Source: Candidatus Poribacteria bacterium (GTDB lineage: Bacteria > Poribacteria > WGA-4E > UBA9662). From it: a stretch of DNA of 63,264 nucleotides. The translations under genes and the position numbers were made by a program. Location: assembly GCA_036339735.1 (NCBI GenBank), contig JAYZAL010000053.1:1-63264 (forward strand). Direction: 5' to 3'. Below, piece after piece: positions 27,483 through 52,562 of the stretch (its first letter is position 1; every line of letters begins with the position of its first letter). Under the pieces are notes generated by a model that did no database searches, was not told the DNA's origin, and worked only from the letters and a program-made list of their open reading frames with translations.

Positions 27483-28346
27483 ATGGTAGATAAATCTCAA
27501 GTTTCTTTTTTTCAGGAAAACGGCTATTTGTCGTATGGATCAGTTTTACAGATGAGTGAAGTCGAAGAATTGCGGAGAGATTTAGACAAGGTAATCCAGA
27601 TAGAACTTGACGGTGGCGACGATACTGAGCCGGAGTTCCGATATGGTCATCGGCGGAATAATGAAGATGAAGTGGGTGCAATTACTCAGTTTGTAAACAT
27701 GTGGAAGCGTCAACCAAGCTACGAGCGACTATTGCACCACCCAATCATTTCTGAAGCAGCCCGTGCTTTGTTAGGTGTGAAACGAGTGCGATTGTGGCAC
27801 GATCAAATCATCTCTAAACCACCAAAAGACAACGGAAAATTCAGTTTCCATCAAGATTTTTACTTCTGGCCTTTGGATCACCCCCGAATTGTGACTTGTT
27901 GGTTAGCCCTAGACGATGCGAATATCGACAGTGGTTGCATGCATGTTATACCGCGTAGTCACATTGATGAAAAGTTCGGTCCTGTAGCTAGAGCTGAAGG
28001 GACTTACAAAACAGAAAGGGAACTTATTAGTCAGAAAGACATCGATTTTGGTACACCAGTTGAACTGATGGCCGGAGAATGTATGTTTCATCATTGCCTC
28101 AATTTTCACGCTACACCACCAAATGTTACTAATCAACAAAGAAGAGCACATATTATGATTTTTATGGCTGAGGGGACTAAAGTTAACTTGTCCCAATCAG
28201 CTAATCACGTTCTCGTGCCTCGATTTGAAGTTGACGATGGCCAAGAGTTAATTGGTAGTGGCTTTCCACTTTCAGAACCAGAAACATGGAGTAACTGGAG
28301 AGTTGAGAAAGCCTTTGCTAACAAAAACGAAATTCGCCAAAATTAG
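27483..28346 (+). CDS. Phytanoyl-CoA dioxygenase (PhyH) family protein
   Basis: FFQENGY, HDQIISKPP, FHQDFYFW, WLALDDA, GCMHVIPRSH, FHHCLNFHAT, RRA. Confidence 0.93.
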   Translation: MVDKSQVSFFQENGYLSYGSVLQMSEVEELRRDLDKVIQIELDGGDDTEPEFRYGHRRNNEDEVGAITQFVNMWKRQPSYERLLHHPIISEAARALLGVKRVRLWHDQIISKPPKDNGKFSFHQDFYFWPLDHPRIVTCWLALDDANIDSGCMHVIPRSHIDEKFGPVARAEGTYKTERELISQKDIDFGTPVELMAGECMFHHCLNFHATPPNVTNQQRRAHIMIFMAEGTKVNLSQSANHVLVPRFEVDDGQELIGSGFPLSEPETWSNWRVEKAFANKNEIRQN

Positions 28347-28355
28347 AGGTTTGAG

Positions 28356-29066
28356 ATGGCAAGTAAAATAGCGATTGTAACCGGTGCTTCCCGTGGTGTA
28401 GGACGAGCAACAGCAACTAAATTAGCTAGGGCCGGAATCTTTGTTTTCTTGGCTGCTCGTAATGTAGATGATTTGAATCAGGTTGCTAAGGAAATTAATA
28501 ATGACACGGGAAATGCTTTAGCAATTCCAACAGATGTAACTCAAGCTCAGTCGGTGCAGAATTTAGTGGATCAAGTTGTCAAGGAAACTGGACAAATCGA
28601 TTTACTTATCAATAATGCGGGAGTAGGGATTTTTGAATCGGTAGTTGACTCTGATCCTGACAAATGGCAATCAGTTATTCAATCCAATTTGACTAGTATT
28701 TATCTGTGTTCTAAAGCTGTCTTACCAACTATGCTAGATCAAAAATCAGGCCAAATTATTAACATTTTATCGGTAGCAGCTCAAATTCCTTTTCCATTCG
28801 CTAGTGCTTACTGTGCAGCCAAGGCTGGAGCCTTAGCTTTGAGTAACGTATTGCGAGAAGAAGTGAGATCGGAAGGTGTTCGAGTAACTGCAGTTCTACC
28901 AGGTTCTATTAACTCTAGCTTTTGGGATAAAATGGAACAACACCCGGATCTTGACTTAATGCTAAAACCACATCATTTGGCTGATACAATTTTGCAACTG
29001 GCAATGTCGCCAGTTGACATGACAGTAGAATCTGTTACCGTCACCCCACCGCTTGGTATATTGTAA
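28356..29066 (+). CDS. Short-chain dehydrogenase/reductase
   Basis: TGASRGVG, NNAGVG, YxxxK (YCAAK). Confidence 0.95.
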   Translation: MASKIAIVTGASRGVGRATATKLARAGIFVFLAARNVDDLNQVAKEINNDTGNALAIPTDVTQAQSVQNLVDQVVKETGQIDLLINNAGVGIFESVVDSDPDKWQSVIQSNLTSIYLCSKAVLPTMLDQKSGQIINILSVAAQIPFPFASAYCAAKAGALALSNVLREEVRSEGVRVTAVLPGSINSSFWDKMEQHPDLDLMLKPHHLADTILQLAMSPVDMTVESVTVTPPLGIL

Positions 29067-29099
29067 ATTTGAGGCTCTAAATCCTACGAATTCAGAGTT

Positions 29100-30494
29100 A
29101 TGAAAAAACCGAATGTGATCTTCTTTTTTACCGATGATCAGCGTTTTGATACTATCAGAGGATTGAATAACCCACACATCAAAACACCTAATCTTGACGG
29201 GTTAATCCGTCGGGGAACAGCATTCACGAATGCGTATATTATGGGTGGCTCATCGGGGGCTGTCTGTATGCCAAGCCGTAGCATGTTGCATACAGGTCGG
29301 TCATTATATCGTATTCGAGGTCAGGGAGAAGACATAGATCCTGAGCACATTACCCTTGGACAAGTTCTACAAGAATCTGGCTATACTTGTTTTGGTACAG
29401 GTAAATGGCACAATGGTTCGGCGTCTTTTTCTCGTAGCTTCAACACGGGTGCTGAAATCTTCTTTGGTGGTATGAGCGACCACTGGAATGTGCCAGCCTG
29501 TGATTTTGATCCTAGTGGAGAATACCCCAAAAGCCCCAAAATCAGTAATCCATACGTCGACAATATAGTGAGTTGGCATCATTGTGATCACGTCACGGCA
29601 GGCAAACACTCGACTGATTTGTTTGCCGATGTAACCTGCGAATTTCTTCGACGGCACAATAGCAAACAAAATCCATTTTTTGCCTATGTTTCTTTTATGG
29701 CTCCGCATGACCCCCGTAGTATGCCTTCAGAATTCCGAGAACTGTACGATCCTGATTTGGTTGAATTGCCCGAAAATTTCACATCGCAACACCCATTTGA
29801 TAATGGTTGGATGACTGGTAGAGATGAGCAACTAGCTAACTTCCCTCGGACGAGAACCGAGGTACAAAGGCATCTTTCTGAATATTATGCCATGATTACT
29901 CACTTAGATACCGGCATTGGTCGAATTATTGATACACTAGTTGAGCAAAAAGTTTTGGACGAAACAATCATAATTTTTACTAGTGATAATGGCTTAGCTG
30001 TTGGACAACATGGTCTGATGGGAAAACAAAATTTGTATGATCACAGTATTCACGTTCCACTAATCATGGCTGGTCCTGGTATTCCATCAGGACAAAAGCG
30101 AGATAGCCTGGTCTACCTGATCGATATTTTCCCCACGTTGTGTGATTTGCTTGAATTGTCAATTCCACAAACAGTAGAGGGCTGTAGCCTGTATCCTACA
30201 TTTAATGATTCAGAAAAACGAATCCGAAATTATCTGCATTTCGCCTTTCAAAATGTACAAAGAGGTATACGAGACGAACGGTACAAACTAATCGAGTATG
30301 TAGTCAATGGCTCTCACCGTAAAACACAACTGTTTGATATGATCAGGGACCCAAAAGAGCTTCATAATCTGGCTAGTGATACAAATCGTAGTGAAGTTTT
30401 ACATAACCTGAGAAATCAGCTCAAAAAATGGAAAACGACCTACGACGATACACGCGAACAGGGCCAGTCTTTCTGGTCATCATACCCTTACTAG
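29100..30494 (+). CDS. Formylglycine-dependent sulfatase (choline-sulfatase-like)
   Basis: KPNVIFFFTDDQ, CxPxR (CMPSR), GKWH, APHDP, SDNG, GKQNLY. Confidence 0.95.
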   Translation: MKKPNVIFFFTDDQRFDTIRGLNNPHIKTPNLDGLIRRGTAFTNAYIMGGSSGAVCMPSRSMLHTGRSLYRIRGQGEDIDPEHITLGQVLQESGYTCFGTGKWHNGSASFSRSFNTGAEIFFGGMSDHWNVPACDFDPSGEYPKSPKISNPYVDNIVSWHHCDHVTAGKHSTDLFADVTCEFLRRHNSKQNPFFAYVSFMAPHDPRSMPSEFRELYDPDLVELPENFTSQHPFDNGWMTGRDEQLANFPRTRTEVQRHLSEYYAMITHLDTGIGRIIDTLVEQKVLDETIIIFTSDNGLAVGQHGLMGKQNLYDHSIHVPLIMAGPGIPSGQKRDSLVYLIDIFPTLCDLLELSIPQTVEGCSLYPTFNDSEKRIRNYLHFAFQNVQRGIRDERYKLIEYVVNGSHRKTQLFDMIRDPKELHNLASDTNRSEVLHNLRNQLKKWKTTYDDTREQGQSFWSSYPY

Positions 30495-31059
30495 TCAAGT
30501 ATGAATTAATCTTAGTAGCTTGAAAACAAAAGATTCATTGATTAGCAGAAGAGTAACTCACCCTGCATTCTCTGGAAGAAGATGAGTAGTTTATTCAAAA
30601 AATTGGAGTGCTTCAACCCAATTCTTATCGATTACTTATCGTAATTTTTTTGGCCTACTGCCTGTCGACCTCATATTTCCCAGAGTTTTTAAACTGAGGG
30701 ATACTGAGAACATATTTACCTACCTCAGTTTTTAAATTTATGAATACTAGATTTTTGTTTATGAATGTAAACTAATTAATTTATTGTTACTTTAATTACT
30801 TTTACAAACTGATACTCTATATTTCATATGCCGATGTACAATGCACTTTCACTTTCTGAAAAATGTCATTAACAATATACGCCTCGTACTGGGTCAACCC
30901 TTCAGTTTGATCTTTTTTTGAAATTGGCTTAACTTCTAAGAGAAGATAACAAAATTACATGACTGCTAGCGCCAATAGAAAAAAATCGCACGGAAAACTA
31001 AGGTACGTGTTAAGAGAAGAATATCGAACTACCAATTATTTACTCATAGGAGAACTATC

Positions 31060-32385
31060 ATGCACCAATATCAATACGTCGAACGGCTCGTAGACCTAAT
31101 GGATCCAAGTAAAAACGTGTTACTAAATATGTCCTATGAGGCTGCAGCTATGAGAGTTTCTTCGGGAGATCCGAGAAGAATAAGTGAAATTGACGGACAA
31201 TTTGGCATTGTACAAAAGCAAGGGAATATTGTACGGATGGCTCGCTCTATTGGTCGCCCCATGCGATACTTCCTAGCAAAGCGTGCTGAAGGACCATGTC
31301 TAATTGTTGCAGAACGTATGGAGGAGTTACTTAATGTGTTAATCGATGAGGGGCTTGAAGATCAATTTCACCCATCTTACACAAGGATGGTACCTGCTCA
31401 TTACGTTGTTGAGATTGCTTTAGTTGGATGTCCTGATCCGAATCCAATAAATACCCGATTCTTCACACCCAAGCGTAATGCTCTAAGTCCAGATCTAGAC
31501 GCAATTGGACATCATTACATTGGAAAGGTCGCAGAAGTCATAGATAAATGGCTGAATACTATTGATGATTCTGAACCTCTAGGTGTGTTATTTTCTGGAG
31601 GGATCGATAGTGGCGCCATATTACTCTTATTACAACATTTGCTACTAAAAAGAGGTCAACCTGCTAACCGGCTTAAAGCATTTACTCTTAACGTTGATGA
31701 AACATCGCAGGATACGAATCAGGCTAAGCGCTTCGTTGATGAGGTCGGCATGAGTATGTTTTTAGAAGTAATCAATGTTAACCAAGAGGATATCGATTTC
31801 AAAACAACAATCAAATTGATTGAGGACTACAAACCATTAGATGTTCAATCTGCAACAATGGCTTACGCATTGTTAAATAAAATTCGTAAACTATACCCTG
31901 ATTGGCTTCACATAATTGATGGAGATGGTGGAGATGAAAATTTGAAAGACTATCCGATTGAAGACAATCCAGAATTAACTATCGCTAGTGTGCTTAATAA
32001 CTTGATGCTTTATCAAGAAGGATGGGGAGTAGATTCGATCAAACATTCTCTAACCTATTCAGGTGGCCAAAGTCGGGGCCATGTTCGGACATATGCACCA
32101 GCAGCAATATTGGGATTTCGAGGTTTCAGTCCATTTACTGTGCCTTCGGTGATTGACATCGCTGAAGGAATACCTTTCGTTGAGCTGACTGAATGGGATC
32201 ACGAAAAGCTCTACGATTTAAAAGGACAAGTAGTCAGCAAAGGTGTTCAAGCCGTAACTGGTGTTAGAATGCCAGTTTTTACAAAACGACGTTTCCAGCA
32301 TGGAGTGTCTTCTAAGGAAATTTTTCAAGAATCCTTCCCCATATCAGATCACACCTATAGGGAAGTCTTCTCAGAAGTTTTTTAG
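31060..32385 (+). CDS. Asparagine-synthetase-related ATP-dependent amide ligase lacking the N-terminal glutaminase Cys
   Basis: PP-loop LFSGGIDSG, DGDGGDENL (GEGADE-like), IDGQFG, KRRFQHG; no Cys at position 2; AGGAG RBS. Confidence 0.8.
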   Translation: MHQYQYVERLVDLMDPSKNVLLNMSYEAAAMRVSSGDPRRISEIDGQFGIVQKQGNIVRMARSIGRPMRYFLAKRAEGPCLIVAERMEELLNVLIDEGLEDQFHPSYTRMVPAHYVVEIALVGCPDPNPINTRFFTPKRNALSPDLDAIGHHYIGKVAEVIDKWLNTIDDSEPLGVLFSGGIDSGAILLLLQHLLLKRGQPANRLKAFTLNVDETSQDTNQAKRFVDEVGMSMFLEVINVNQEDIDFKTTIKLIEDYKPLDVQSATMAYALLNKIRKLYPDWLHIIDGDGGDENLKDYPIEDNPELTIASVLNNLMLYQEGWGVDSIKHSLTYSGGQSRGHVRTYAPAAILGFRGFSPFTVPSVIDIAEGIPFVELTEWDHEKLYDLKGQVVSKGVQAVTGVRMPVFTKRRFQHGVSSKEIFQESFPISDHTYREVFSEVF

Positions 32386-32389
32386 TGAA

Positions 32390-33361
32390 ATGGTTACGAA
32401 CCTGCCGAATATTAGTACTCAGCAAGTTATTACACAACGATCATCGAAAAACATAGTCAACGCCAATAAACCATACGACTGCATGATAGAAGTAGAATGC
32501 GGATCGGATTTGGTTTTACACCGAATTGCTACTTTGTTCTTGACTGGAAGTGAGTGCCCATTTCACTGTGTAATGTGTGACTTGTGGAAGAATACACTTG
32601 ATTATGCAACTCCTGTTGGGTCGGTACCTCTTCAGATTTTATGGGCTCTCAAAAACCTGCAAATCGACTGGTACGACCCTGCGGCAAAAGGTATTAGCAC
32701 TATCAAGCTGTATAACAGTAGTAATTTCTTTGATAAGAGAGCCATACCCATTAAAGACTGGCCAGAAATTGCAAAATTGGTGAATGCCTTTGAAACCATT
32801 ATTGTGGAAAATCATCCAGTGTTGTGCAGCGAACGGATCTTAAAATTCCGCGACCTGATCGCTGGTCGACTAGAAATTGCTATGGGGCTGGAGACGACAC
32901 ACCCGAGACTACTAAAATGGCTAAATAAGCAAATGACACTGAAACAATATCAAAATTCAGTTGATTATTTGATCACCAATAATATTCAAGTACGGTCATT
33001 TATTTTGATAAAATTACCATCACTCACGGAAGAAGAAGGAATTGAGTGGGCCGTAAAGTCGATGGAATTTGCTTTCGATTGTGGCGTAGAGTGTTGTTCG
33101 CTTGTACCAGTTCGAGCTGGAAACGGTTTCATGGACCAACTGGAGAAAGACGGTTTTTTTAAAGCACCTGATATAACCAGCCTCGAGTGTGTACTCGAAT
33201 CAGGTTTAAGTATGGAACGCGGCCGTGTCTTTGTCGATCTATGGGATAGTAAGTTAATTGAAGGCTGTTCAGCATGCAAAAAATTACGCCTACAACGCAT
33301 TATGAAAATGAATGAATCCCAGTCTTTCCAACCAGAGGTCCAATGTCATGAATGCTGCTAG
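32390..33361 (+). CDS. Radical SAM protein (TIGR01210/RaSEA-like)
   Basis: CxxxCxxC (CPFHCVMC), IKLYNSSNFFD, VENHP, LEIAMGLET, LNKQMT, RSFILIK, and C-terminal CSAC...CHECC. Start at ATG 32390, 4 nt after the previous stop. Confidence 0.85.
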   Translation: MVTNLPNISTQQVITQRSSKNIVNANKPYDCMIEVECGSDLVLHRIATLFLTGSECPFHCVMCDLWKNTLDYATPVGSVPLQILWALKNLQIDWYDPAAKGISTIKLYNSSNFFDKRAIPIKDWPEIAKLVNAFETIIVENHPVLCSERILKFRDLIAGRLEIAMGLETTHPRLLKWLNKQMTLKQYQNSVDYLITNNIQVRSFILIKLPSLTEEEGIEWAVKSMEFAFDCGVECCSLVPVRAGNGFMDQLEKDGFFKAPDITSLECVLESGLSMERGRVFVDLWDSKLIEGCSACKKLRLQRIMKMNESQSFQPEVQCHECC

Positions 33362-34838
33362 TAGTAAACAAATAATGATTATAGGAAGTGGTTTCGGTGG
33401 GTCTATTTTGGCGGCCATCCTCGCCAAGGCGGGGATCTCAGTTATGTTAGTTGACCATCAATCCCACCCTCGATTTGCTATTGGCGAATCTTCTACACCA
33501 ACTGCTACGTTTATTTTGAAATCGCTAGTGAAACATTACCAGCTAACAGAGCTAGAGGCATTGACTAGTTATGGCCTTTGGAAACAGAAACTCTTTCAAG
33601 TAGGTTGTGGAGTAAAAAGAGGGTTCAGTTATTTTTTTCATTCTCCAGGATCACCAGTTCAAACTACAGATTTACATCAAAAAGAATTATTAGTTGCCGC
33701 AAGTTCGTCTCATTCAACAGCAGACACGCAATGGTATCGTCAGGACGTAGACGCATACTTGCTCGACTATGCAAAACGTTGTGGTGCAACCTGCATACTA
33801 AATAGTAAAGTTGTAGAGGCTAAATTCGATGAACAACACTTTTCTTGGACGGTCCAATTGGATACAAACTCACAAAACCAACAGTTTGATTGGATTATTG
33901 ATGCCTCTGGGTCAAGCCAAGTTATGTGTGAGCTGACTGACGTTACCCCGAATAGTAAATTTGAGTTGGAAACCAATACTGCTGCTATTTATGGGCATTT
34001 TGAAAAAGTACGTCGTTACGATACGCTTCTCGAAGAAGCTAGTATGGATGTGTCCGATTTCCCATTTTCATCAGATGATGCAGCTCAGCACCATATGATG
34101 CAACATCAATGGCTCTGGAGTTTAAGATTCGATAATGGTATTACTAGTCTGGGGTTAGTAATAGACCTAAACCATTATAAATTTGACTATAAATTGTGGG
34201 AATCCATGTTAAATACTTATCCCGCAATATCCCAGATGCTCTTTGGTGCTATACCACATAAGGCAACACCGATTTTACGTTATTCAGATCGATTGCAACG
34301 TTTAGCACCTTTTGGATACGGGCCAGGATGGGTTGCATTACCTCATACAATTGGGTTTGTGGATCCATTGCATAGTACGGGAATTGCTCATACGTTAAGT
34401 GGAGTCGACCGATTAGCAAGAATTTTGACAAAACCTAGAATTAGTCGAGATGAAGTACGAGATTACTCGTTAGCCATTTACCGAGAATTACGTTTGATTG
34501 ACCGATTGGTGGCAGGTTGTTACAAACTGATGCCTAGCAAGGCTCATTTTGAAGCGTATTGTATGCTTTATTTTGCCGCAGCTCACAATTATGAAACTCG
34601 TTGTTTAAATTTAGGGTCATCTGAATTGCCTGCTGGAATTTTTTTATCTGACGATGTGGACATGACGAAGGCTATTAACTTCGCTTTTGATCTGGCGAGT
34701 GAAACTGCGGCATGTGAAGGATGGGAAAATATAAAAGGGTTTGAGCAACAAATCAGAAATCTGATTGCACCCTTCAACCAAATTGGCTTATGTGATCCTG
34801 ATCAATATTCTATGTATTCTCACACTTCCGTTCTTTAA
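33348..34838 (+). CDS. Flavin-dependent halogenase-like protein (tryptophan halogenase superfamily)
   Basis: GSGFGG, HPRFAIGESSTP, Lys in GVKRGF, IDASG, WLWSLRF (WxWxIP variant), GFVDPLHSTG. ATG 33348 with AGAGGT RBS overlaps the radical SAM stop. Confidence 0.85.
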   Translation: MNAASSKQIMIIGSGFGGSILAAILAKAGISVMLVDHQSHPRFAIGESSTPTATFILKSLVKHYQLTELEALTSYGLWKQKLFQVGCGVKRGFSYFFHSPGSPVQTTDLHQKELLVAASSSHSTADTQWYRQDVDAYLLDYAKRCGATCILNSKVVEAKFDEQHFSWTVQLDTNSQNQQFDWIIDASGSSQVMCELTDVTPNSKFELETNTAAIYGHFEKVRRYDTLLEEASMDVSDFPFSSDDAAQHHMMQHQWLWSLRFDNGITSLGLVIDLNHYKFDYKLWESMLNTYPAISQMLFGAIPHKATPILRYSDRLQRLAPFGYGPGWVALPHTIGFVDPLHSTGIAHTLSGVDRLARILTKPRISRDEVRDYSLAIYRELRLIDRLVAGCYKLMPSKAHFEAYCMLYFAAAHNYETRCLNLGSSELPAGIFLSDDVDMTKAINFAFDLASETAACEGWENIKGFEQQIRNLIAPFNQIGLCDPDQYSMYSHTSVL

Positions 34839-35251
34839 GAAGAACTATTCAAAGTCTTATGTGAAAACTTTGAGTAGTTGACTCATTTACACAGATATGC
34901 TCAATTAAACAAGTACTTATAGCATTTATACGGAAATACAGTAATCAAAGCCAGCTAATGACGATTAGTAAACCCTGCTTTGTTGGAGATTCAAAACCTG
35001 ATTAATATAATCAAGAAGGTTTTCAGTCAAAACGGGTTTGAGGAATTTTGCTTTGATTGAATTTGATACAGACTGTTTGTGAAAAAACTCGTAGACTAAT
35101 GATCTATTTCCACTTTCTCAGGCCCATTAAATTGCGTTGTATAAAAGTTACTAAACTAGCACTTCTGACTAACCTCAATTTGGCTTGAATTACATTCAAA
35201 ACAAGTGCTTTGGTAGATCAAAAACCAAAATTCCAATTACTGTGAGTAAAA

Positions 35252-38200
35252 TTGCATAACAAAACTAGATTACTTCTCATTCTCAATCTTTGTTACTTTT
35301 ATATTCTGCTTTGGCTCTCGATGAATCTTGAATTGGCAGTGGCACAGAATTTGTCAACAGTAACTGGTTCATCGGGGCTGGCAAAAGCAATCGATAATGA
35401 GGGTGATTTGATATATGTTGGTGCAGGTTCACAACTGTTTATTCTCGATGCAGAAGATGTATTAGACGAGCAAGCGGAAAGACCAATCTGGCAAGCTGCG
35501 TTGACGGTTCCTGGATCAATTGACCAAATTGCTATTCATAAAGTTACATCCAATAAAATATTCGCATATTTATCCCTCGGCGCGAATGGCTTCGGAATTG
35601 CTGATGTCAGTCAACCAAATGCACCCAAGTATGTATCGACTTTAGCTCAGATTGGACCATCAAATCGCTTTTTTTTCGATAAAAATGAAGATGAAGATCA
35701 TGTTTATATAGCTGGTGCACAAGGTGGATGGCATATAATCAATATTGAAAACGAAAGTTCACCAATTGTCTTATCAAGCCAATTAGTTAACTTTCCAGTT
35801 GCTTGTGTTTACGTTCATAGAAAGAAAGCTTACGTTGTTACCAAACCTGACGGTTTAGGACAAACAAGTGAACTGTTTATTTACGATGTGACACAAAAAA
35901 CTAGCCCCACGCTTCAGTCTGTAAAAGTAGATATCGAAGAATCTGTTCAGGATAGTGTTAAATTAAATGGACTTGCACAACGGATTGTTGTACGCCGATT
36001 AGACAATCAAAAAACCTTAGCCTATGTTGCTCTAGGGAAAAGAGGTCTCCATATTTTAAATGTTACAGACATAAAAAATATTATAGTTAATCAAAATCTG
36101 ACAGGTATAACGGAAGCGATCGACATCGCTCTGGACGAAAACAATTGGCTTTATGTATCTGACGAATATATTGGTCTCCATGTTTTTGAAGATGCTAAAA
36201 ATTTAGATACAATCGGCAATTATTCGCCATCCAATTTCATTTCCCGCCCAACTGTTGCTTTCTCGGTCTCATCGACGAGTAAAAGAGCCGATTTGTACGT
36301 TGTTGATGGTCTCAACCACGCAATGGTCCTCAAGCAAGACCTAGAATCTAAAACGCCTTGGCAGCTAATAGGTAACTGGCGAACAGTTGGTGTTGTAGAA
36401 TCAGCCATTTTTTTTAGGACTGATAGTAAAGGAACAATTGCGACAGCCAATGGTCAGAATGGGGTTTCGCTGTTCACCGTAGAATCAAATAATATTAAAT
36501 CTGGAGATGTAAAATCTAGTAATCAGTTTCGAACTTTCGTGGACGTGGGAAGTTCCGTTTCAAGCCTGACTTATAACCAGATGAATGGCCTACTTTATAT
36601 TCTTTCTTCTAATTTGACATTGATCGATCCCAAACAAAATAACAAAATTTTGCACCAACTTCCATTAGCAAAATCAGCCAAAAGTTTGATATTCGTGCCT
36701 TCTTCACTGGTAACTACATCATCAACCCTGACTTATCTTTCTACTGATTTACTTGAAGTTTACGATTTCGACACACCAACTACTCCACAACTAATAACTA
36801 CGGTTCCTATTTCGAATATTGAAGATCAATTCTTATTTCAGTTAGAAGATAAAACCCTAATTTGTTTGGCTTGTGGTGCTGATGGTCTGAAGGTTTTGGA
36901 TGTTACTCAACCAACGCAACCCAACGTCATCAGTACTTATCAAACGGTAGCTGATGGTTTTAGTAGAACGGTTGAGGTCGTAGATCAAATAGCATTTGTT
37001 TCCGACAGCTATGGTGGTCTATGGATCGTCGATTTAGCAGAGCCAGCACAACCCACAGAAATCACTCGACTTCGAACTGACAGCGTTGTTCAAGACCTAA
37101 CGATAAACGGAGAATTTGTATTCTTGGCCACTGCAACAAGAGGGATACAGGTCGTGGATGCGAGTATTCTACATAGTCCAAAAATAGTTAAAAACTATTT
37201 AACACTAGGCTCAGCTTTATCCATATTTGAAATCCCACGGATCAGTAATTCTGACATACAGCAAATTCTGGTTGGTGATGCCAGTAATGGTGCACAAATA
37301 TTGTCTGTTGACCTGCTAGTTCCAAGATCCCCTATCATTACTGGCTTATCGCCCCGGGCCGCCTTACCTGAAAAACGTGTTACCATTAGTGGTAGAAATT
37401 TTAACGTTGATGCAACAGTTTTATTTGGTAATTTGGAAGTGCCCCTTGTTGAGTGGATATCAGAAGATTCAATTCAAGCATTTATTCCGAAGGATCTAAA
37501 AGAAGGACTATATGATCTGGCTGTTGTTAACCCTGATCAGGCAAGTAGTGAACTACCATCCCGTCTGAAAATTGTAGGGAAACAAGCGGAAATCTTTATT
37601 TCTGCTCTTACGGACCCTGACCAGTCTTTGGCCCGGATTGACTTCAATTCTATCCCCCTAGGCTCCAAAACCCCCCCTATTTTCCCTTTGCAGATAAAAA
37701 ATAATGGTACTGCTTCTCTAGAAATTAAAAGAATCGACTTACCAAGCCGAAAATTCACGATCCAGTCTAGTGAAGTTCTGCCATTGACAATAAATCCTGA
37801 CAAAACGGAGCTAATTACACTTCGCTTTGAACCAACAACTATCCTGAAGTTGGAGGATATGGTCACTTTTCACTGGAAAACCAGTGGACAAGAAACCGTT
37901 AGTCAATACACTCTACCCGTTGGCCTAACGGTGACTGGTAAAACTGAGTCCTTTACTATTTTAGGGGTTGGTCGTCATTTGACAATCGATGGTGAAAGTA
38001 TAGTTGAGACGGCTTATGTGGATCAGAATTATACTGTTGAGGTCAAAATCCTTTCAGATGACGGTTCAACGGTTATTTCATCGACGGTTAGTCCCGTCCG
38101 ATCCATTACCAATGGAAGCGCCTATACATACATTACATCTATTGATCCTAGACCGGAAACTGGTTATGCCCCTATTGAGATTGGGCAACAAATTGAGCTT

Positions 38201-41200
38201 AGTATTTTCTATCATGACCCGACTATTCTATCCAATCAGTTTGGTACGCCTACTGGGTTACTCAATTTGAAGGTTGATGGGCAAGAGTATAGCGGTGAAA
38301 CTAAGATTGAAATCAAGGAAAAGCACCTCGCTAATAGAGAAATTTCTATTGATTTTGGCATTCTATTTCCCAAGCCGAAAGTTACTGATATTACTCGGCT
38401 AGACCCAATTAATCCTAATTTAGCGGATCCAAGTGGTGGTGGAGGAACGCCCCTTCGCTTACATGGACTCAATTTTCGGCCGGGACTCGAGTTGAGGATA
38501 CAAACCGGATTGACAACAGACCAATTAACATTAGCAACTGAAGTTGAACGTGTGTCTGATAATGAGTTACGGGCATTGACACCAATTGGCTTACCTGGTA
38601 CGGATCGGAGCGTTGTGATCATCAATGTTGATGGGCAAGAGTCAAGCCTGACTAACTCACCAACTTATACTTACAACTCTGTCGATCGTATATCTATTCT
38701 CGACCCAGACGCAACAGTCGATTCCGAACGAGATCGACTTTTATTTGCTCCCATTTTAACTGAAGGGGTACCTTTCACCTTACCGATCTCCACAACTAAA
38801 ACATTACAAGCTATTGGATTCGACAAAAACGGTTACCGCTTAGCGTTACAAGATACCACTTGGGAAATTGTTGGTAATGCTCGGGGCGGAGGGATTGCAC
38901 CTAATGATGGAAAGTTAACGACGGGTCCTAAAAAAGGAGACTTTAGGATTAGAGTTACATATACAACTGGTGGTATCAACTTGACGGCAACCCAACCAAT
39001 TACAGTAACGGCTGGTGCACCCACCAAAATCATTGGTGTCTCAGCCAATCCTACTCAGTTAACAGCGTCAACAGAAAACAAGTTAACTCATTGCCAGATT
39101 ACTGTTCACGTCACGGATCAGCAAGGAAATCCAGTATCAGATCTGAAAATGTCATCTCAGGGGTTTTCAAGTAGCAAATCTCTCAACTTCAAGGCTAAAT
39201 ACAGTGAAATCGAGAGTGATCTTCCACAACTCGGTCAATTCAGCAACTTTATCTCTAATGGGGACGGTAACTACCAAATCACGTATACTACCCCAAACCA
39301 CCTAGAGTTATTCAAACCAGGAATTTCAGGGCAGTACCCAAAACGACCAGTTAGGCTATCAATCGTTGTTAATGACCAAATTGCGACAAAACCTCCATTG
39401 AATTTATACCCTCCAGTAGCCTTTCTGACTATCACGCCAAAGCGAACAATAATCTTAGATCTTTCTTCCATTAGTCTAGAACTACTTTCAAGTCTGGACA
39501 ATTTTCGAGCCAAAATTCAGCAGGCGACCCAATTAGCCGAGCTGAACAAAGAATTGAAAAGCAACGGTCTTCCTATCTTTCAACCATTGCTAATGGTAAC
39601 TGAAAACCGATCTGGTGATTTTTTAGAGTCAGTTCCAGTTACATATATGGGCAATGACCGCTATGAAGTACTGGATAGCAGCAAAATACAACCAGCACCA
39701 TCGCGATCAAATTCATCTGTTTTTATTACCGGATTATCAGCGTATAAAGATTTTAGTAAAGATGTCAAATGGCAAGTTGTTCCAGACGTTATTTCAGAAC
39801 AGTTATTTCGCCTACCAGCCGATGGAACCACTAACAAAAAATTTATCGTTCATGGAATCGATAATCTAGGCTCATTTGTAACACACAAGACCCCGATTTT
39901 GATAGACGGTTTTACTCAACAACAAGTCTCTCAAGAAGAATTGCAGATTTCAACTACTGTTGGTCGTTTGGTTGATGAAAATGTAACTGATACCGGGTAT
40001 GAGTTTGTGTACTTAGCATCGACAACACAACAGCGTAAAGTTCGCATAAAAGCCTTGAGTAGTAATGCTAACGGTCAAATTGATCTTCAGCTGGTGAGTG
40101 GAGAAACAGCTAATATCACGCTTCAGTTTGCTAACAACAATTTTTTGGGTGGTGTCCCGCAACTACCTGCCGATGGGAAGTCCAAGATTGCCTTCCAAGT
40201 GACAATGACTGATCGGTATCGTAACCCAGTTATTTTGTCAGAGCCCTATAACAACCCGGTTTCACGATCTTCACAGATTGAAGTTACACTACAAATGAAT
40301 GAAGAGGAGGCGCAGTTTTACTTCCCACGATCTGGTGAATCAACAGAGAATGCCAGCAATTTAGGAACGATTCAGAATTTTGTCGACCTCCAAAATGGCT
40401 CCTATACAGCTGAGTATGTAGCCGGCAGCAGAATGGGGACCATGAGGTTACAAGTAAAAAATGGGGACGCAATAGCTCAAGCTTCATTATCTATTTTACT
40501 TGGGGAGAAAGCCGAGCTGCAACTGATCAACGTGGCTCCCTATCGAATGAATTACCAGCTTGAACAGAACAGACTCTTTCCTAAAGGGTATACCCCAGTC
40601 GCTGGTGGGGATATTATTCCTTTATGGCTCGTGGTCAGAGATGCTAATGGTAACTCAGTTAGTGGATTAAGATTGACCGTCGATGTTGATAAAGGTCAAA
40701 CGGATGAAGTCGCTAGTGAAAAGAAAACGGCTGCTGCTGATTTCACATCATTTCAAAACGATGACTGGAAATATCCACCCATTAAAGATTTATACCGGGT
40801 TAACTACAATCCACCCAAAACAGCTGAAAAAGTAAAAGTCAATGTTATTGCAGAAGACCCAAAAAGTGTAGTTACTCCTCCGCTTCGGATCAGCAAAATC
40901 TTCGAATTACCTGTTGTACCTAATCGCCCAGATTCAAATGAATCCACGATCGAAATTGGTCGAGGGCAGCAAATGAAGCAACCACCATCTGATGGTACCG
41001 AGTCAACGCTGGCCACGGTGATCGTTCGGGATAAACACCGGAACGTAGTTCCTAACCAGAAGTTACAATTAGTCATAGTTGATCAGCCTACAGAATCCAC
41101 ACCGACTATAATTCCCCTACCAAAAAGTTCGCAACAGTCTACTGCATCGACAAATGAAGATGGACAAGCATCTTTTGAATTGAAGATGAAGTATGACGTT

Positions 41201-44200
41201 GAAACAGCTAGTGATAACGTGTTGAAGGTTAAAGCCGAGCTAGTTGATGGGGATTCAGCTTTTCAACCATTGACCACTTTAGTGCCGTTCAGTTCGCCCA
41301 AAATAGCTGAGATTGAGTTCACTCAATTACCTCTTGAACTTCGTGGTAATGGTATTTCGGAGGGGGAAATTCTACTTAAGGTGAAAAATGAAGTCGGCAT
41401 ACCTCTTTCAAACGCAGATATTTGGGTGAATCCATCTGAAGGCGAAATAGTGGGTAGTCAGGTTATATCTATTGGAAATGGTATTTATCGTTGTATGTAC
41501 CGATCGACCGACCGCATGACTACTATAGTCTTGGAGGCAGGATCGAAAAGTGATATATATCGATCAAATTCACAGCCTAAATTATTGAATAACGAATTTG
41601 ATTTGTTAGCAGGAGATGTCTCTCCGAGTAATTCTACGGTGGAAATTTCGGATAGCACCATTTTAGCTAACTCAAAGTCGAGGACGGCCGTCGATATCAC
41701 ATTACTAGATGGTTCTAAAGAGGAAAACCCAATTCAGGGGCAGTCAATTGTGTTATCCGTACCCGACCATTCCGATAAAGTAATTATTGAGCAACCCTTA
41801 CCCACTAACAGTAAAGGTCAAACGACAGGCTATATCCAATCAGCTGTCGTTCATCGATTAGGCCAAGACGTACCACTCCAAATCGAGGTGAAAGTTCTTG
41901 TTCAACCAATCAATGATCAAGGTCAAACTGTTGTACTATCTGGAAATCGTGACCAACCACTGACATTTTACCTTGTTCCTCCTTCTCCAAAACGTATTGA
42001 TTTCACTTCTATCAAATATCAAAATGGGACAGAGGCCGAATGGTTAAATGCAAAAGGGCCATACGATGAGGATAAAAGCCAAGTCATTCTGGAAATTCAG
42101 GTGTTAGATAAAGCTGGTGACCCCGTTGAGCCACTGGAACCAACGATGTATTTGATGGCTTCCGCTGGCCAAATACCCGATCAGGCTGAATATTTGGGTA
42201 GTGGTATTTATCAAGCTATATTTACATCACCCAGTTATCCAGATGATCGACTAGAGATTAGAGCCAAAATCGCGGATTTAGCCAATCAAGAAAAGGCATG
42301 GTTGGAATTTACTCAAATCTTAACCGTACGAAAGACAGACATTATTCCACCTACTATTGAGAAGGCTGAAACTATCAATAGCAAAGAAATATTATTGAGA
42401 TTCAATGAGCCAGTGTTTGGGTTATTGGTCGATAATTGGTCAGTTGACGAAAACCGTATCGATCAAATTATCCCTCAATTTCAGTTCACTCAAAAAGGAG
42501 GTAGCCAAGAATTTCGTCTGATTTTGGTTGCTCCGATTTCACCTCAGTCTGAGCCAATGGTAGCATATCAAACCTTGGTGCTACCTGTTAACACAGATAA
42601 TGAAATTGATGATACCTATTCAGAGAATCTACCTATGGCTCAAGATCTAATTGGTGCGGTGCAAGATCTGTCTGGCAATTTTCTGTCGACGGTTAGCATC
42701 AAAGCTCAGGATAAAATACTACCCGACTTTCAGGCCCAAATTACCGGAGCAAACCAGATTTTACTGACTTTTAATGAACCGGTGATAGGATTTCGGCCAG
42801 ATGTCTACCTTTCTAATCCTGACAACGGAAATCATATCGGTTGGAAAATTCAAAGTGGTGAGTTCAAAAAAGAAATGGCAAACTTCGTTACCAATTTTGA
42901 GCCTCTTGATTCTACTGCAAGCGAAGGCTATCGTCTTTGGCAAGTTGACTTTAGACCCGAATACGATCCGTCCATACCTTGGTTCCTTCCTCTGAAACCT
43001 AATCAAATCCCTAATCAAATCCGATTTGAATATCAGCCTGATCCAACTTCCGCGCAGTTTCAGCCTCAGACTGACCTCAGTGGTAATCCAATTAGTGGCG
43101 AACCCGTAATTGCTACATTCAAAGAGTTACCTGCTATTATTGTGCTGGATACTAAAGGTAACCAATTGGAAAAGACATTATCGGTTTCTGAAGGACAAAC
43201 TATAGACTTAGAAATTATCGTTACAAATGAACGATTCTTAACTGATGAAATTTCATTTGAATCATCCAATGAGCTATTTATAGTAAATATGCCGATAGAT
43301 AATGAAATCACTATTGAGTCGGCAGCACCTATTTATACCTCTCTCTCCGATTATAAAAGTAGTTTAAGTGAAACAGGTAAGTTAGATTGGGTGGATCGAC
43401 TCATCGACGTTCTGGGTGGTAGTGGAAAGAACTTTTGGGCCCGAAACTATAGCGTGACCTTTGGGCATAATATTGCGACTGCTAGCGCACCCAAGGAAGT
43501 TTATCCATTTGTTCTTTCGGTAGAAGACAAAAATTTTCCTAACCAATCTGTCAGAAAAGAACTTCAGTTTGAAGTTAACAATCGAAGTTTGGCTGCTATG
43601 GTAGAAATAGTCAGTGAAAGAAAACAATTGGTTGCAGACGGAATAGATAAAACACCAATTACCGTCACAATAACTGACTCAATTGGTGCCCCCGTAGAGG
43701 ACGAGCAAGTCACATTAGTCACCGATGATGGCAGAGAGTTCAAAACTTATTACCCTTCTCCTTATGTTAGAGGTCATTACCAGGGAGTATATATCACTAA
43801 AAATGACCAAATTGGTGATGTCATTATTACCGCAAGAACTTCGGTAGATGGTGTTTCGGCTCAAATCAAGCTTGATCATTTGCCTGAGCAACCGGACAGC
43901 GTTCATTTAACGATTACTGACTCTGAACTGCCGGCGGATGGTAATTCTACTACTCGGTTGATAGTCACATTGCGTGACAAGAAAAAACGCCCGATTGATA
44001 GCCATTTTGCTTACTTGGATTCTACAAAAAACCCACAATCTCCGACACTTGAAATACAAGAAGTAGAAGTTCGTTTTGATCCACCTCCAAAATATGGTCG
44101 CATTTGGAGTCAAACTCAAAACTTAATAGACAATATGCCGGAAGTTACAGATGATGACGAAATTGACAACATGAATAGTGCTAGATTTGTCGGTGGGCTA

Positions 44201-47200
44201 ACGGGTAAACATCTAGCCTTCTATCAGGCACCAAACGAGTTCTTACCTGATCGAGAGGCTGTTAAAATTGTGGCTAAAGTAACTGTTTTTGACCCGAAGA
44301 AGGGAAGTAATATTACTATGAGTGGCGCGGCATCTGTTATTTTGTATAAACCAAATCGGTTACCAAAGCTAACGATCAAAGGTCCGTTGAGTGAAATTTC
44401 AGGTGAAACATTACCAACACCCCTTTATGAAAACGACGAATTAAAACTGGAATTGATAGTTGAAGACCCAGACCAAGACCCAGTTAACTTGTACGCCGAA
44501 AATCTGCCTTCGGGAGCGACTCTAACCCTTCCAACCGAAGATAACCAAAATGCCAAATTTGAATGGAAACCTACGAGCCAATTAGTCAAGGCAGAAGAAA
44601 AAGAGAAGCCTTTCACAATTACTTTTCATGCATCAGACGGTCGTGGTGGAAGTGTTAGTAGAAAATTGAATGTCGTAGTTAAGCATCTCAGTTCTGCTAA
44701 ACAGATCAGTCTATTTGCTACACCTAATAGGCTGGTTGTTGGGCAATTAGAAGATATTTCGTCTGCTACCATTCGTGCCATTGTGAGCGATAGAGACGGG
44801 ATTCGACAACCTTTCGAAAACTTAAGAATGATGTCCACATTCACACCTGACCCACCTGCCCTAAAAATCACAAATACTGATAAAGAAGTATCGTTATCAT
44901 TGAATACAGAATCCCAGATAATAACAACTGACCTTACTGTTATCGAAGAAGAAGTTGGTGTTTATCGAGCAGTTTTTTCGGCTGGGACTAGTTCTGGCCA
45001 AGTCTCTGTAACAGCTCAAATTGAAGGAACTAATACCAAGTCCAAACCAGTTATACTTGAAGTTTTGCCAGATTCTTTATCAACTTTGTTGGTGTCTGGA
45101 CCGCTGGTCAAAAAGCCGAACCCCATACAATTGGAGGCTGGAGAGAGTGAATTTTTTACGATTTGGGGACAGGATAAATATTACAATCCAGTCCCAATTC
45201 CTCAGGATGAAAAATCTAGTTTACAATGGGCAATAGTGGGAAATATTGGCCAAGTTATGCCGGAGGAACCAATGGCTTCTGAATTTCCTTACCGGCGTTT
45301 CCAATTTATAGCAGAATCAGTAGGACAAGGTGAGATTACTTGGTCAATTTCAGTAAACAATACGAAAATTGAGCAAAAAACTGACAAAATCAAAGTATCT
45401 CCTGGCCAATTGGACCGAGTCATAGTGGAAATGACTCAGCCAGAAAATCTTTCTGCTAGTATACCTATCGGTCAAGAATTGACATTTGAGGCCAAAGCTA
45501 CTGATGCTTTTGGCAATACTATATCACTAGTAAAAGATGAAGTCAGTTGGTATGTGCTCAATGATATTGGAGACCTCGATACTGACTCACAACCGACAAG
45601 CCAGCCGATAGCTGTATTTAGCCCACGCCGAATTGGAAAAGGTCTTATTTCAGCTAACGTAGGAAAATTGCAAGGCCAATCGGCTCCAATCTCAGTGGTA
45701 GCTGGTTCTTTAGATCGGATTGAAATAAAACCTATAGAAGTAGAATATCAGTCACAAGATCCGATTGAAACATTGGCTGGAGACCAAATTCAGTTTTCAG
45801 TTCGTGGTTTCGACAGCACAGGAAATTCAGTCCCAATACCCAACGCGTTTGCTAATTGGCAAATCGTACGAATTGACGATAACAACGAAATGTCTGTTGG
45901 AATTGGTACGTATGAGACGTTGAAAAATGGAATTGGAGAGACAATGGATCCATCTGGTATTTATAACTTTCGGGCGACTACTGTTGGTCTTGGCCGGATT
46001 GATCTAACTTTTAAACCACCAATGGGCAATACTGTTAAATCCCAATCATCCGAAATCAATGTTTCATCTGGCCCGGTTCATAGCTTGAGTATAGAACCCA
46101 AAAATCCTACGGTTATTGCTGGAGAAGAAATCAAGTTTCGTATTATTCCACAAGACAGTTATGGTAACTCTATTTCATTTCATTCTAACATTGCTGCTGA
46201 TAGTGAGGACGACCAGCCGAAATCAAAAGAAAAAATTGAAATTAGCCTAGAATTGGTCATTCCGAGTAATAACCTTGAGCCTATTGCTGAAATTTTGGAA
46301 GGATATAGGTTGAAAGCAAAAAAGACTGGAATTGGACAAGTGAAAGCAAGATTAATTCGCTCAGAAACAGAATCTCTGCCTCTGCATAAACGAACGTCCC
46401 CAATTGAATCATACGCTCCGATCACAGTGGTAGCAGGTCCAGTGGTGAAGGTTGAAGTTCATCCCAAAGAAGATTTTAGCGTTGAAGTTGGCAAAATAGT
46501 AAACTTCCAAGCAATTGGTTTGGATGCACTTAATAACCCAGTACCATTGAATACTGGCCTAAAGTGGACATTGGATCACTTGGAAGGAAGGCTGGGTGAG
46601 ATAGATCAAGAAGGAAAAGTCGAAGTGAACAGTATTGGAAAATCTAAGATCACTGTGAATTTTACTGATCTAGAAAGTGATGAAGAAGACCCTAAGATAC
46701 TAACTGGAGCTTCTGGTGAATTATCTAGTGGTATGCCCATTCCACTGCAATTTACCAAAACTCAACGGCCTAAAACCATAGTCGGTGCAGGACTTGGCAA
46801 AAAATTGACCTTACCTATATCAGCCCAAAATGTGCCGCTCCCCTTCCAACTCTTGAAGGGTTCAATGGTTTTATCTTACCCGTTGGACCTACTTCAGTTT
46901 GACAAAGTGAAAGTCGTTGGTGATTTTACCGTTCAAAATCAGTTAATTCAGCCCGGTCAATTGTCTTTAATGTGGGACTTAAAACTATCACCTGCAACGA
47001 GGCAAGAAGGTGCACCTGTTCATTTTGTTGATTTAGTTTTTACAGTATTACCAACAGCCAAAATAGGAGCTATATCTACAATCGAATCAATCTCTCTACA
47101 ACTACAAGGAAGCAAAGGCTTAATTCCAAGCAATCGACCAAGAGTCGAGTTTCATCTTCTTCCAGATGTAGTTGTCGATCTAGTAATGGTTGAAACGAAA

Positions 47201-51917: not shown

Positions 51918-52562
51918 ATGAAGCAGCTTGACCCCTTAAATGGATTAATCATTGGTCTGACTGGTGGTATTGCATGCGGGAAATCGACGGTAACCCAACT
52001 ATTGCAGAGAAGAGGGGCTGATATAATTGACTTGGATCAAATTGGGCACGAGTTGTTGAAGGCTAACAGCCCGGTAATGAAACAATTACTCAAGACTTTT
52101 GGCCCCGAGGTCTTAGATTTATCCGGCGATGTGAATAGAACTAAGTTAGGAAAGATTGTATTTGCTGACCCATTGGCTCGCCAGCAATTGAACGATATAG
52201 TTCATCCCGAAATCCACCGGATTTCACGTCAATTAGCTCAATCGAAAGTCAAAAATCAAGCTGATAGCATAGTAGTGATCGAGTCTCCGTTATTAATTGA
52301 ATCAGGAGGGTATCGTAGTGTTGATTATGTTGTGCTGGTGTCTGCTACTCCCGATCAGCAAATAGTGCGGTTGATGAAACGTAGTCTGGAACAAAATAAA
52401 ACAATGACCCAGTTGGATGCTGAAAAACGACTAGCTGCCCAAATGTCTCTAAAGGAGAAAATGGCTTACGCCGATTATATAGTCGATAATCAAGGTGATC
52501 TGACTGAGCTTGGGAAACAAGTTGATCAACTTTGGTTGATATTGACTAATTTGAATTCTTAA
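51918..52562 (+). CDS. coaE: Dephospho-CoA kinase
   Basis: IGLTGGIACGKSTV, LGKIVFAD, LNDIVHPEI, PLLIES, RLAAQM, ADYIVDN. Confidence 0.96.
   Translation: MKQLDPLNGLIIGLTGGIACGKSTVTQLLQRRGADIIDLDQIGHELLKANSPVMKQLLKTFGPEVLDLSGDVNRTKLGKIVFADPLARQQLNDIVHPEIHRISRQLAQSKVKNQADSIVVIESPLLIESGGYRSVDYVVLVSATPDQQIVRLMKRSLEQNKTMTQLDAEKRLAAQMSLKEKMAYADYIVDNQGDLTELGKQVDQLWLILTNLNS

Follow-up and report, generated by a model that had tools for sequence, protein, structure and literature searches.

The radical S-adenosylmethionine (SAM) enzyme RaSEA converts preQ0-lysine to archaeosine by removing the lysine carbon skeleton and leaving the nitrogen in place, and it acts in a complex with ArcS, the enzyme that attaches the lysine (accessible text of PMC11298593). 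A second radical SAM enzyme, MnmL (YhcC), converts cmnm5(s2)U to nm5(s2)U, cutting an N–C bond and leaving an amine, according to the accessible part of a preprint (10.64898/2026.05.18.725915). Both are N-dealkylating families, and they are the two nearest characterised families of a radical SAM enzyme encoded on a 63,264-nt stretch of DNA, here called the window, from a Candidatus Poribacteria bacterium (contig JAYZAL010000053.1 of assembly GCA_036339735.1; genome G000). Its gene is the second of three co-directional, tightly packed enzyme genes in the open reading frame (ORF) listing of the window (31060–34838, + strand), and lies between a gene for an enzyme related to the asparagine synthetase AsnB (gene 1) and a gene for a halogenase-type flavoprotein (gene 3). 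Here we describe this trio, its conservation, its hosts, and the reactions that its products may carry out.

The three genes form one cassette

We used four samples to ask where these genes occur: a scan of species genomes, which gave at least 564 matching species loci and of which the best 80 were kept; a second, independent set of 79 metagenome loci; 176 genomes of the window's phylum, G000 included; and 151 genomes drawn evenly from the planctomycete order of G180 (the genome of locus L050, from a Pirellulaceae bacterium). The AsnB-like gene is present in 5 of the 176 phylum genomes, and both partners lie beside it in all four of those other than the window's own, with a gap of about 1.65 kb ahead of the flavoprotein gene in one phylum genome; a same-genus genome holds the same trio at 95, 90 and 88% identity for genes 1, 2 and 3 respectively. 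The radical SAM gene is present in 46 of the best 80 species loci and missing from 29 that have at least 1 kb of downstream sequence. Where at least 1600 nt extend past the radical SAM gene (39 species loci), the flavoprotein gene is next in 29, elsewhere in the locus in 4 and absent from 6. In 73 of the 79 metagenome loci the AsnB-like gene is followed at once by the radical SAM gene, which is missing from none of the 66 loci with room for it, and the flavoprotein gene is next in 23 of 50 loci with room.

We searched five genomes, four of them with no radical SAM gene close to the AsnB-like gene together with that of the full-trio locus L050, and found a radical SAM match in all five; three of the four split genomes have the gene at a separate site, and in two of those three the flavoprotein gene adjoins it. 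In the order sample of 151 genomes, the AsnB-like gene is present in 16, the radical SAM gene in 14 and the flavoprotein gene in 15. No carrier of any of the three falls outside those 16, and 13 carry the full trio; neither the radical SAM nor the flavoprotein gene was found in any of the other 135 at the thresholds used. Several of these carriers have the trio genes on different contigs, and the genomes are related rather than independent. The distance matrices of the three proteins also co-vary across 45 full-length trio loci (Mantel r 0.79, 0.78 and 0.87, each P 0.001). We conclude that the three genes are a real functional unit, a single self-contained enzyme cassette in which the AsnB-like and radical SAM pair is the core and the flavoprotein is a frequent third member. 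Members of several bacterial phyla acquire and lose this cassette as a whole. The unit proposed in a preliminary description of this DNA is found in many genomes, either syntenic or co-occurring genome-wide.

Hosts and horizontal acquisition

The module is present in Planctomycetota, Bacteroidota, Rhodothermota, Acidobacteriota, Fidelibacterota and Poribacteria (at least 564 species genomes), and the window DNA itself is also found in seawater or marine metagenomes of six further studies. A quick maximum-likelihood tree, built from 78 AsnB-like proteins, places the window sequence, L010 and G060 as a group within a clade of six metagenome-assembled genomes of marine Pirellulaceae and Planctomycetaceae (SH-aLRT 100). 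The remaining two phylum genomes are elsewhere, one with an Acidobacteria and a Planctomycetota sequence and one with Cyclobacteriaceae and Neomarinimicrobiota, and the phylum's copies sit in three separate places in the tree. The window trio is 76–78, 55–59 and 57–59% identical to that of the Pirellulaceae clade for genes 1, 2 and 3, compared with 63, 48 and 38% and 56, 46 and 32% for the genomes of its own order. Because the window copy nests within the Pirellulaceae clade and the identities of all three proteins are concordant, the sequences indicate that the cassette was acquired horizontally, and as a unit, by the window's lineage, and that it is an accessory element and not a trait of Poribacteria. 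The preliminary description had put weight on the poribacterial host, an emphasis that does not survive the scarcity of the module in the phylum sample, its three tree positions, and the place of the window copy within Planctomycetota.

That description had also named no characterised pathway with this trio, and we agree: our literature search, which had subscription-only papers and supplements outside its reach, found no paper on the trio or the pair, and no characterised pathway or biosynthetic gene cluster that contains it. The accessible part of a preprint on halogenase clusters of sponges describes AMP-binding enzymes paired with halogenases, an arrangement different from this module. The module is a widespread orphan three-enzyme cassette, made up of known superfamilies in an undescribed combination. 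New here are the marine, horizontally acquired copy in Poribacteria and the genome-level tests of co-occurrence and co-evolution. Cultured carriers (Novipirellula rosea JCM 17759 with locus L021, Maioricimonas sp. JC845 with L018, Aporhodopirellula aestuarii and Stieleria marina) make the function of the module experimentally accessible.

The encoded enzymes

The gene 1 product matches PF00733 (Asn_synthase) at 54.4 bits (cut-off 21), over residues 170–304 only, and fails the asparagine synthetase equivalogs TIGR01536 (42.4 versus 267.1 bits) and NF006949 (27 versus 499). Across 38 sequences, G181 and D183 of the SGGIDS motif at residues 179–184 are invariant and S179, G180 and S184 nearly so, and the DGDGGDEN motif is conserved. 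The protein begins MHQYQY, with His and not Cys at residue 2, and the family consensus has no Cys near its start. We compared an AlphaFold2 (AF2) model (predicted local distance difference test score, pLDDT, 89) with solved structures using VIA-align, and the closest are beta-lactam synthetase (1mbz_A, Z 25.0, root-mean-square deviation 3.7, 374 aligned), the human and E. coli asparagine synthetases (Z 24.6–24.9; AsnB 1ct9_A, Z 24.6), carbapenam synthetase (1q19_A, Z 21.1) and TsnB9 (Z 20.3). Beta-lactam synthetase and the asparagine synthetases are tied, so that the fold does not discriminate between them; a sequence profile search of solved structures returned asparagine synthetases only (four matches, E 1e-4 to 8e-4). 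Model residues 4–441 pair with AsnB, human asparagine synthetase (ASNS) and beta-lactam synthetase from about chain residue 37/40 to the end, in agreement with Foldseek. Because this full-length alignment begins only at chain residue 37–40, the model indicates the two domains of the AsnB fold, the N-terminal one being short of the nucleophile segment. The N-terminal domain is nonetheless as conserved as the PP-loop domain, and R62 and R69 are invariant even in relatives of 27–45% identity. By sequence and model, then, the protein is an ATP-dependent PP-loop enzyme of an amide- or lactam-forming fold, and one predicted to be incapable of using glutamine. A distant paralogue at L108 (53% identical to P0290) is not accompanied by a radical SAM gene, a single case. 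Two apparent fused forms, P0264 and P0315, were rejected, as they look like frame-shifted translations of high-GC DNA.

The radical SAM enzyme has the cluster-binding motif CX3CX2C with C56, C60 and C63 invariant in 39 sequences, and in the same sequences a C-terminal CxxC...CxxC whose cysteines are invariant or nearly so. Its best NCBIfam family is RaSEA (TIGR01210, E 1.2e-19, 70.7 bits, or 70.4 in the genome search), followed by TIGR01212 (MnmL/YhcC/YtqA), which matches at E 3.2e-5 over residues 161–225 only. An AF2 model (pLDDT 94) has the radical SAM domains of Elp3 as its best solved folds (E 4e-8). The partnership with ArcS is not seen; the radical SAM gene adjoins the AsnB-like gene instead, in the 46 genome and 73 metagenome loci counted above.

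The flavoprotein matches PF04820 (Trp_halogenase) at 58.5 bits (cut-off 21), and its best solved relatives, over residues 8–373, are PltM (6bzt, E 6.5e-36) and CtcP (7xgb, E 1e-30). Among 56 orthologues the GxGxxG motif is retained almost throughout (G13 and G15 in all 56, G18 in 55), and K90 is present in every one, within the sequence CG(I/V)K(L/R)GF. K90 aligns with the lysine in CGIKLGF of PltM, which we take to be the catalytic lysine of that enzyme. The second-best NCBIfam match is QhpG, at E 1e-13 and 51 bits versus a cut-off of 240. We describe the protein as a halogenase-type flavoprotein, for which halogenation is a predicted activity. One metagenome protein (P0394, 924 aa) joins a radical SAM part (39% identity, residues 23–377) to a flavoprotein part (33%, residues 413–892) on a single 4.3-kb contig; this may be a true fusion or a sequencing frameshift at the overlapping junction, and we give it no weight. 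We saw no obvious N-terminal hydrophobic signal sequence in the translation of any trio protein, and a comparison with the protein atlas returned the same families.

What the cassette may do

The pairing of a glutaminase-less ligase with a relative of the N-dealkylating enzymes RaSEA and MnmL suggests a sequence of ligation followed by cleavage. The AsnB-like enzyme would adenylate the carboxylate of a small, probably aromatic substrate derived from primary metabolism and would join it to an amine, possibly that of an amino acid, drawing no ammonia from glutamine. The radical SAM enzyme would then cleave the new N–C bond on its alkyl side to give a primary amide or amine, or would otherwise remodel the adduct, and the flavoprotein would introduce a halogen at an electron-rich ring of that molecule, its reduced flavin being supplied by a general reductase. 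We favour amide ligation, radical N–C cleavage and halogenation of a small aromatic acid as the single most likely reading, and hold it tentatively. If ligation followed by cleavage is correct, the N-dealkylating radical SAM chemistry of two transfer RNA (tRNA) pathways extends to a new class of substrate, and there is a new route to amides; if the flavoprotein does halogenate, the module points to a widespread, unrecognised organohalogen. In a more far-reaching version, to which we give little credence, the pair is a system for glutamine-independent nitrogen installation in which a carboxylate is ligated to an amino acid whose carbon skeleton is then cut away, a bacterial counterpart of ArcS and RaSEA built on a different ligase fold, and together with the flavoprotein it would produce a new class of halogenated metabolite or protein-derived cofactor in hundreds of marine and soil species.

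Several observations weigh against the favoured pathway. Every chemical step is proposed by analogy, and so are the nature of the substrate, the sequence of reactions, the source of nitrogen and halogenation itself. The radical SAM enzyme misses the RaSEA cut-off of 212.15 bits by a wide margin, and many generic radical SAM folds are close behind Elp3 among its structural neighbours. The WxWxIP motif of halogenases is altered in the flavoprotein, where residues 255–260 read W-L-W-S-L-R and the last-position Pro is found in 2 of 56 orthologues (W255 in 56, W257 in 50, L259 in 53 and R260 in 46); because of this change, and although the lysine is invariant, we use the term halogenase-type and treat halogenation as a prediction. 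A halogenase fold need not mean halogenation, since QhpG, a monooxygenase of this fold, is active on Trp in a peptide that a radical SAM enzyme has already cross-linked (accessible text of PMC7876137). No flavoprotein gene is nearby in 27 of the 50 metagenome loci with room, or in the 6 of 39 genome loci noted above, and with so many loci of this kind halogenation would not be obligatory for the core pair. The fold of the ligase can also close a lactam without an external amine, as in beta-lactam synthetase and CarA. Moreover, the AsnB-like protein is the slowest-evolving of the trio (mean pairwise distance 0.38 versus 0.53 and 0.60 for the other two, 45 loci) and is 59–78% identical across phyla; such strong conservation is uncommon in secondary metabolism and is in keeping with a substrate that is macromolecular or highly constrained. 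Finally, a minority of loci lie beside genes for exported FG-GAP/ASPIC, multihaem, MauG-like and hydrazine-synthase-like proteins.

The last of these observations, and the strong conservation of the AsnB-like protein, would fit a role of the cassette in the cytoplasmic maturation, ahead of export, of a ribosomal peptide or a protein-derived cofactor, in the manner of QhpD and QhpG, with the AsnB-like enzyme forming an isopeptide or lactam, or amidating a carboxylate, on the peptide. QhpG is a precedent for a flavoprotein that works on a peptide substrate after a radical SAM enzyme, and is, as described, the second-best family match of the gene 3 product. FG-GAP/UnbV_ASPIC proteins are neighbours in 6 of the 80 genome loci and in 11 of the 79 metagenome loci; at L140 a c554-type multihaem protein and a MauG-type di-haem peroxidase are present as well, and at L036 a protein with an HZS_alpha domain. 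This association, seen in a minority of loci, is real but weak and has no bearing on the window locus. UnbV_ASPIC is non-discriminating, as it is present in 174 of the 176 phylum genomes, and with many copies per genome (19 in G000, none of them on the window contig) some adjacency is expected by chance; HZS_alpha is present in 2 of the 176 and in none of the five trio carriers. In the accessible text of a paper on hydrazine-synthase homologues (PMC12758564), no radical SAM enzyme and no asparagine synthetase is mentioned. With no conserved small ORF beside 29 trio loci, and the halogenase lysine kept in 56 of 56 orthologues, we consider such a maturation role doubtful.

A small-molecule pathway with no nitrogen donor would also accommodate the ligase. 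The AsnB-like enzyme would close a lactam or other intramolecular amide, the radical step would be an unrelated one (such as the formation of a C–C or C–S bond, a methylation or an epimerisation), and the flavoprotein would halogenate the product. The structural comparison is consistent with this, since beta-lactam synthetase and carbapenam synthetase, at the Z scores given above, are among the best matches (the former tied with asparagine synthetases) and both have a dead N-terminal domain, and the patchy, mobile module resembles a cassette of specialised metabolism. The sequence search of solved structures, however, gives asparagine synthetases only (E 1e-4), genes for lactam precursors are never constant neighbours, and the nearest radical SAM families are N-dealkylases, all of which make this pathway unlikely in our view. 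We know of no precedent for halogenated nucleic-acid bases, which counts against a role in modifying a 7-deazapurine or other base of tRNA, DNA or a free nucleoside, where a carboxylate, for instance 7-carboxy-7-deazaguanine, would be the substrate of the AsnB-like enzyme, and the RaSEA-like enzyme would take over the adduct. Both RaSEA and MnmL act on modified tRNA bases in the accessible accounts cited above, the PP-loop fold is common to QueC-type and tRNA-modifying enzymes, and G000 has a normal QueC (254 bits). But no partner resembling tRNA-guanine transglycosylase (TGT) or binding nucleic acid is linked to the module, whose presence in about 3% of the phylum and 11% of the order genomes sampled is a poor fit to housekeeping RNA modification. 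TGT (PF01702) gave no match in the 92%-complete G000, probably owing to an assembly gap; because both same-genus genomes have one canonical copy, located apart from the trio, the queuosine pathway looks ordinary. Base modification is accordingly the least probable of the readings, and we regard it as highly improbable.

The locus and its surroundings

The coordinates of the trio and its flanks are collected in Table 1. In the ORF listing, the longest frames of the trio start at 31060, 32261 and 33312 respectively, all on the + strand. Starting gene 2 at the internal ATG gives a 323-aa product and a junction with gene 1 that reads TAG-TGAA-ATG, a 4-nt gap. For gene 3, the start at 33312 would mean an overlap of 50 nt with gene 2, and we favour the ATG at 33348, which overlaps gene 2 by 14 nt and has AGAGG about 10 nt upstream, because of the matches to orthologues and the position of GxGxxG at residues 13–18. 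The spacers on either side (30495–31059, 565 bp, and 34839–35251, 413 bp) have a GC content of 0.30–0.37, compared with 0.40–0.44 within the genes. The layout in the preliminary description (three co-directional genes, the first two 4 nt apart and the last two overlapping by 14 nt, with AT-rich spacers of about 565 and 410 bp on either side) is confirmed by these measurements, and its three family assignments were right, the RaSEA-like enzyme scoring below the TIGR01210 cut-off. Annotation of the neighbours also bears out its view that the unit stands alone, with no adjacent non-ribosomal peptide synthetase (NRPS) or polyketide synthase (PKS), transporter or flavin reductase.

Table 1. Positions of the trio and flanking elements in the window.
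Feature	Position	Strand	Details and evidence
Terminator-like hairpin and U-run	30691..30731	+	~200 nt past the sulfatase stop; 9-bp stem, -15.6 kcal/mol, z -3.7, 0/200 shuffles fold as well
AT-rich upstream spacer, presumed promoter and 5' untranslated region of the trio	30732..31059	+	GC 0.30-0.37
Gene 1, predicted AsnB/beta-lactam-synthetase-fold ATP-dependent PP-loop enzyme, 441 aa, truncated N-terminal nucleophile (Ntn)-type N-terminal domain	31060..32385	+	PF00733, TIGR01536, AF2 model
Gene 2, radical SAM enzyme, 323 aa, Elp3/RaSEA/MnmL-like group	32390..33361	+	TIGR01210, TIGR01212, AF2 model
Gene 3, flavin-halogenase-type flavoprotein, 496 aa, nearest phenolic halogenases PltM and CtcP	33348..34838	+	PF04820
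AT-rich downstream spacer, before the giant surface-protein gene	34839..35251	+	GC 0.33; no Rfam match

Upstream of the trio is a co-directional unit of a PhyH-family dioxygenase, a short-chain dehydrogenase/reductase (SDR) and a sulfatase (27483–30494, + strand; sulfatase at 29100–30494), followed by the hairpin, which probably ends this transcription unit and was not caught by a consensus terminator scan because of its long loop. The sulfatase is kept upstream of the trio within the same genus only, and we rejected it as a partner, as sulfatases are found at scattered positions and in five loci only. Downstream (35252–49462, + strand) is an ORF of 4736 aa that most likely encodes a giant surface adhesin, with Invasin_D3, Big_1, Big_5, LVIVD, ASH, dockerin and FlgD-Ig domains; these Ig-like, LVIVD and dockerin domains led us to reject an NRPS or PKS at this position. 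In both same-genus genomes, too, the giant gene is the next one downstream after the trio (90 and 67% identity over the first 666 aa), and a same-family genome without the trio has an orthologue of 46% identity; synteny around the giant gene is lost in the same-family genome that was compared in search of an empty site. Further on, a BatA/VWA-domain protein (49969–51873) and a dephospho-CoA kinase (51918–52562), both on the + strand, are ordinary genes unlinked to the trio.

Rfam gave no match to a riboswitch or other RNA in the window at the gathering score, nor in 30400–35300 at E<=1, and we rejected such an RNA at the trio on this basis. Scans for promoter and terminator consensus sequences found sites no commoner than in shuffled sequence. 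We looked for conserved small ORFs (15–110 aa) within 600 bp of 29 trio loci and found none, with sharing confined to near-identical relatives; the small ORFs of the window's upstream spacer are common to the near-identical relative L010 only. A precursor of a peptide made by the ribosome and modified after translation (RiPP) beside the trio was rejected on this result. Contigs from RNA libraries (four runs from three studies) cover parts of all three genes, and also 30820–31033 of the upstream spacer, and bridge neither junction; as such libraries can hold DNA, these contigs give no more than a hint of expression of the trio.

Clustering of ORFs in the genome and metagenome locus sets gave no cluster common across lineages besides the trio, and the neighbours are lineage-specific (such as DUF1501/PSCyt pairs, LpxK with lipid A acyltransferase, or phosphoglucosamine mutase). 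In L143, L175, L182 and 11 similar metagenome loci of one marine lineage the pair is present without the flavoprotein gene, and is followed by genes for a hexapeptide transferase, a DCC1-like thiol-disulfide oxidoreductase, LpxK and a lipid A acyltransferase, which is probably a lineage-specific synteny. The loci in which the pair directly follows an FG-GAP/ASPIC (CRTAC1-like) gene include L140:92-5820, L129:701-5957, L036:10266-13319 and L083:1619-5215. PADLOC has no family for genes 1 and 2 and gave only Rossmann-type matches for gene 3, an outcome on which we rejected a defence system.

Comparison with known systems

The cassette has features of several described systems. The QhpD and QhpG proteins of quinohaemoprotein amine dehydrogenase likewise bring together a radical SAM enzyme and a flavoprotein of halogenase fold, and some loci of the cassette have exported haem or propeller proteins nearby. 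However, QhpD is of the SPASM type whereas the enzyme here is Elp3/RaSEA-like, the QhpG family score is well short of its cut-off, and no small-subunit gene, protease or exporter is linked to the trio; the accessible text on the qhp system describes no AsnB-like enzyme (PMC7876137).

With PltM, a phloroglucinol halogenase, and CtcP, a tetracycline 7-halogenase, the flavoprotein has in common HPRF-x-GE-x-TP and the lysine in CG-x-K-x-GF, but it has WxWxLR in place of WxWxIP, its C-terminal 120 residues are unaligned, and there are no polyketide or pyoluteorin genes. The AsnB-like enzyme, for its part, has the two-domain asparagine-synthetase fold, non-catalytic N-terminal domain and PP-loop ATP site of CarA and the beta-lactam synthetase of clavulanate synthesis, over about 370 residues. 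It is only 10–16% identical to them and is not connected to them by sequence search, no clavam or carbapenem genes are nearby, and its N-terminal domain is, as noted, no less conserved than the catalytic one.

MnmL/YhcC is the second-nearest characterised radical SAM family and, in the accessible account, cleaves an N–C bond to leave an amine; the match to it is weak and partial (residues 161–225), and MnmL binds tRNA and pairs with a methylase, MnmM, and not with a ligase. Like its relative RaSEA with ArcS in Euryarchaeota, the radical SAM enzyme of the cassette is a probable working partner of an enzyme predicted to add a nitrogen-bearing group, and the genes for the two are neighbours. Here, however, the score is one third of the RaSEA cut-off, the hosts are bacteria with no tRNA link, the partner has an ATP-dependent AsnB fold rather than that of a TGT/PUA-type ArcS, and a halogenase-type flavoprotein has been added.

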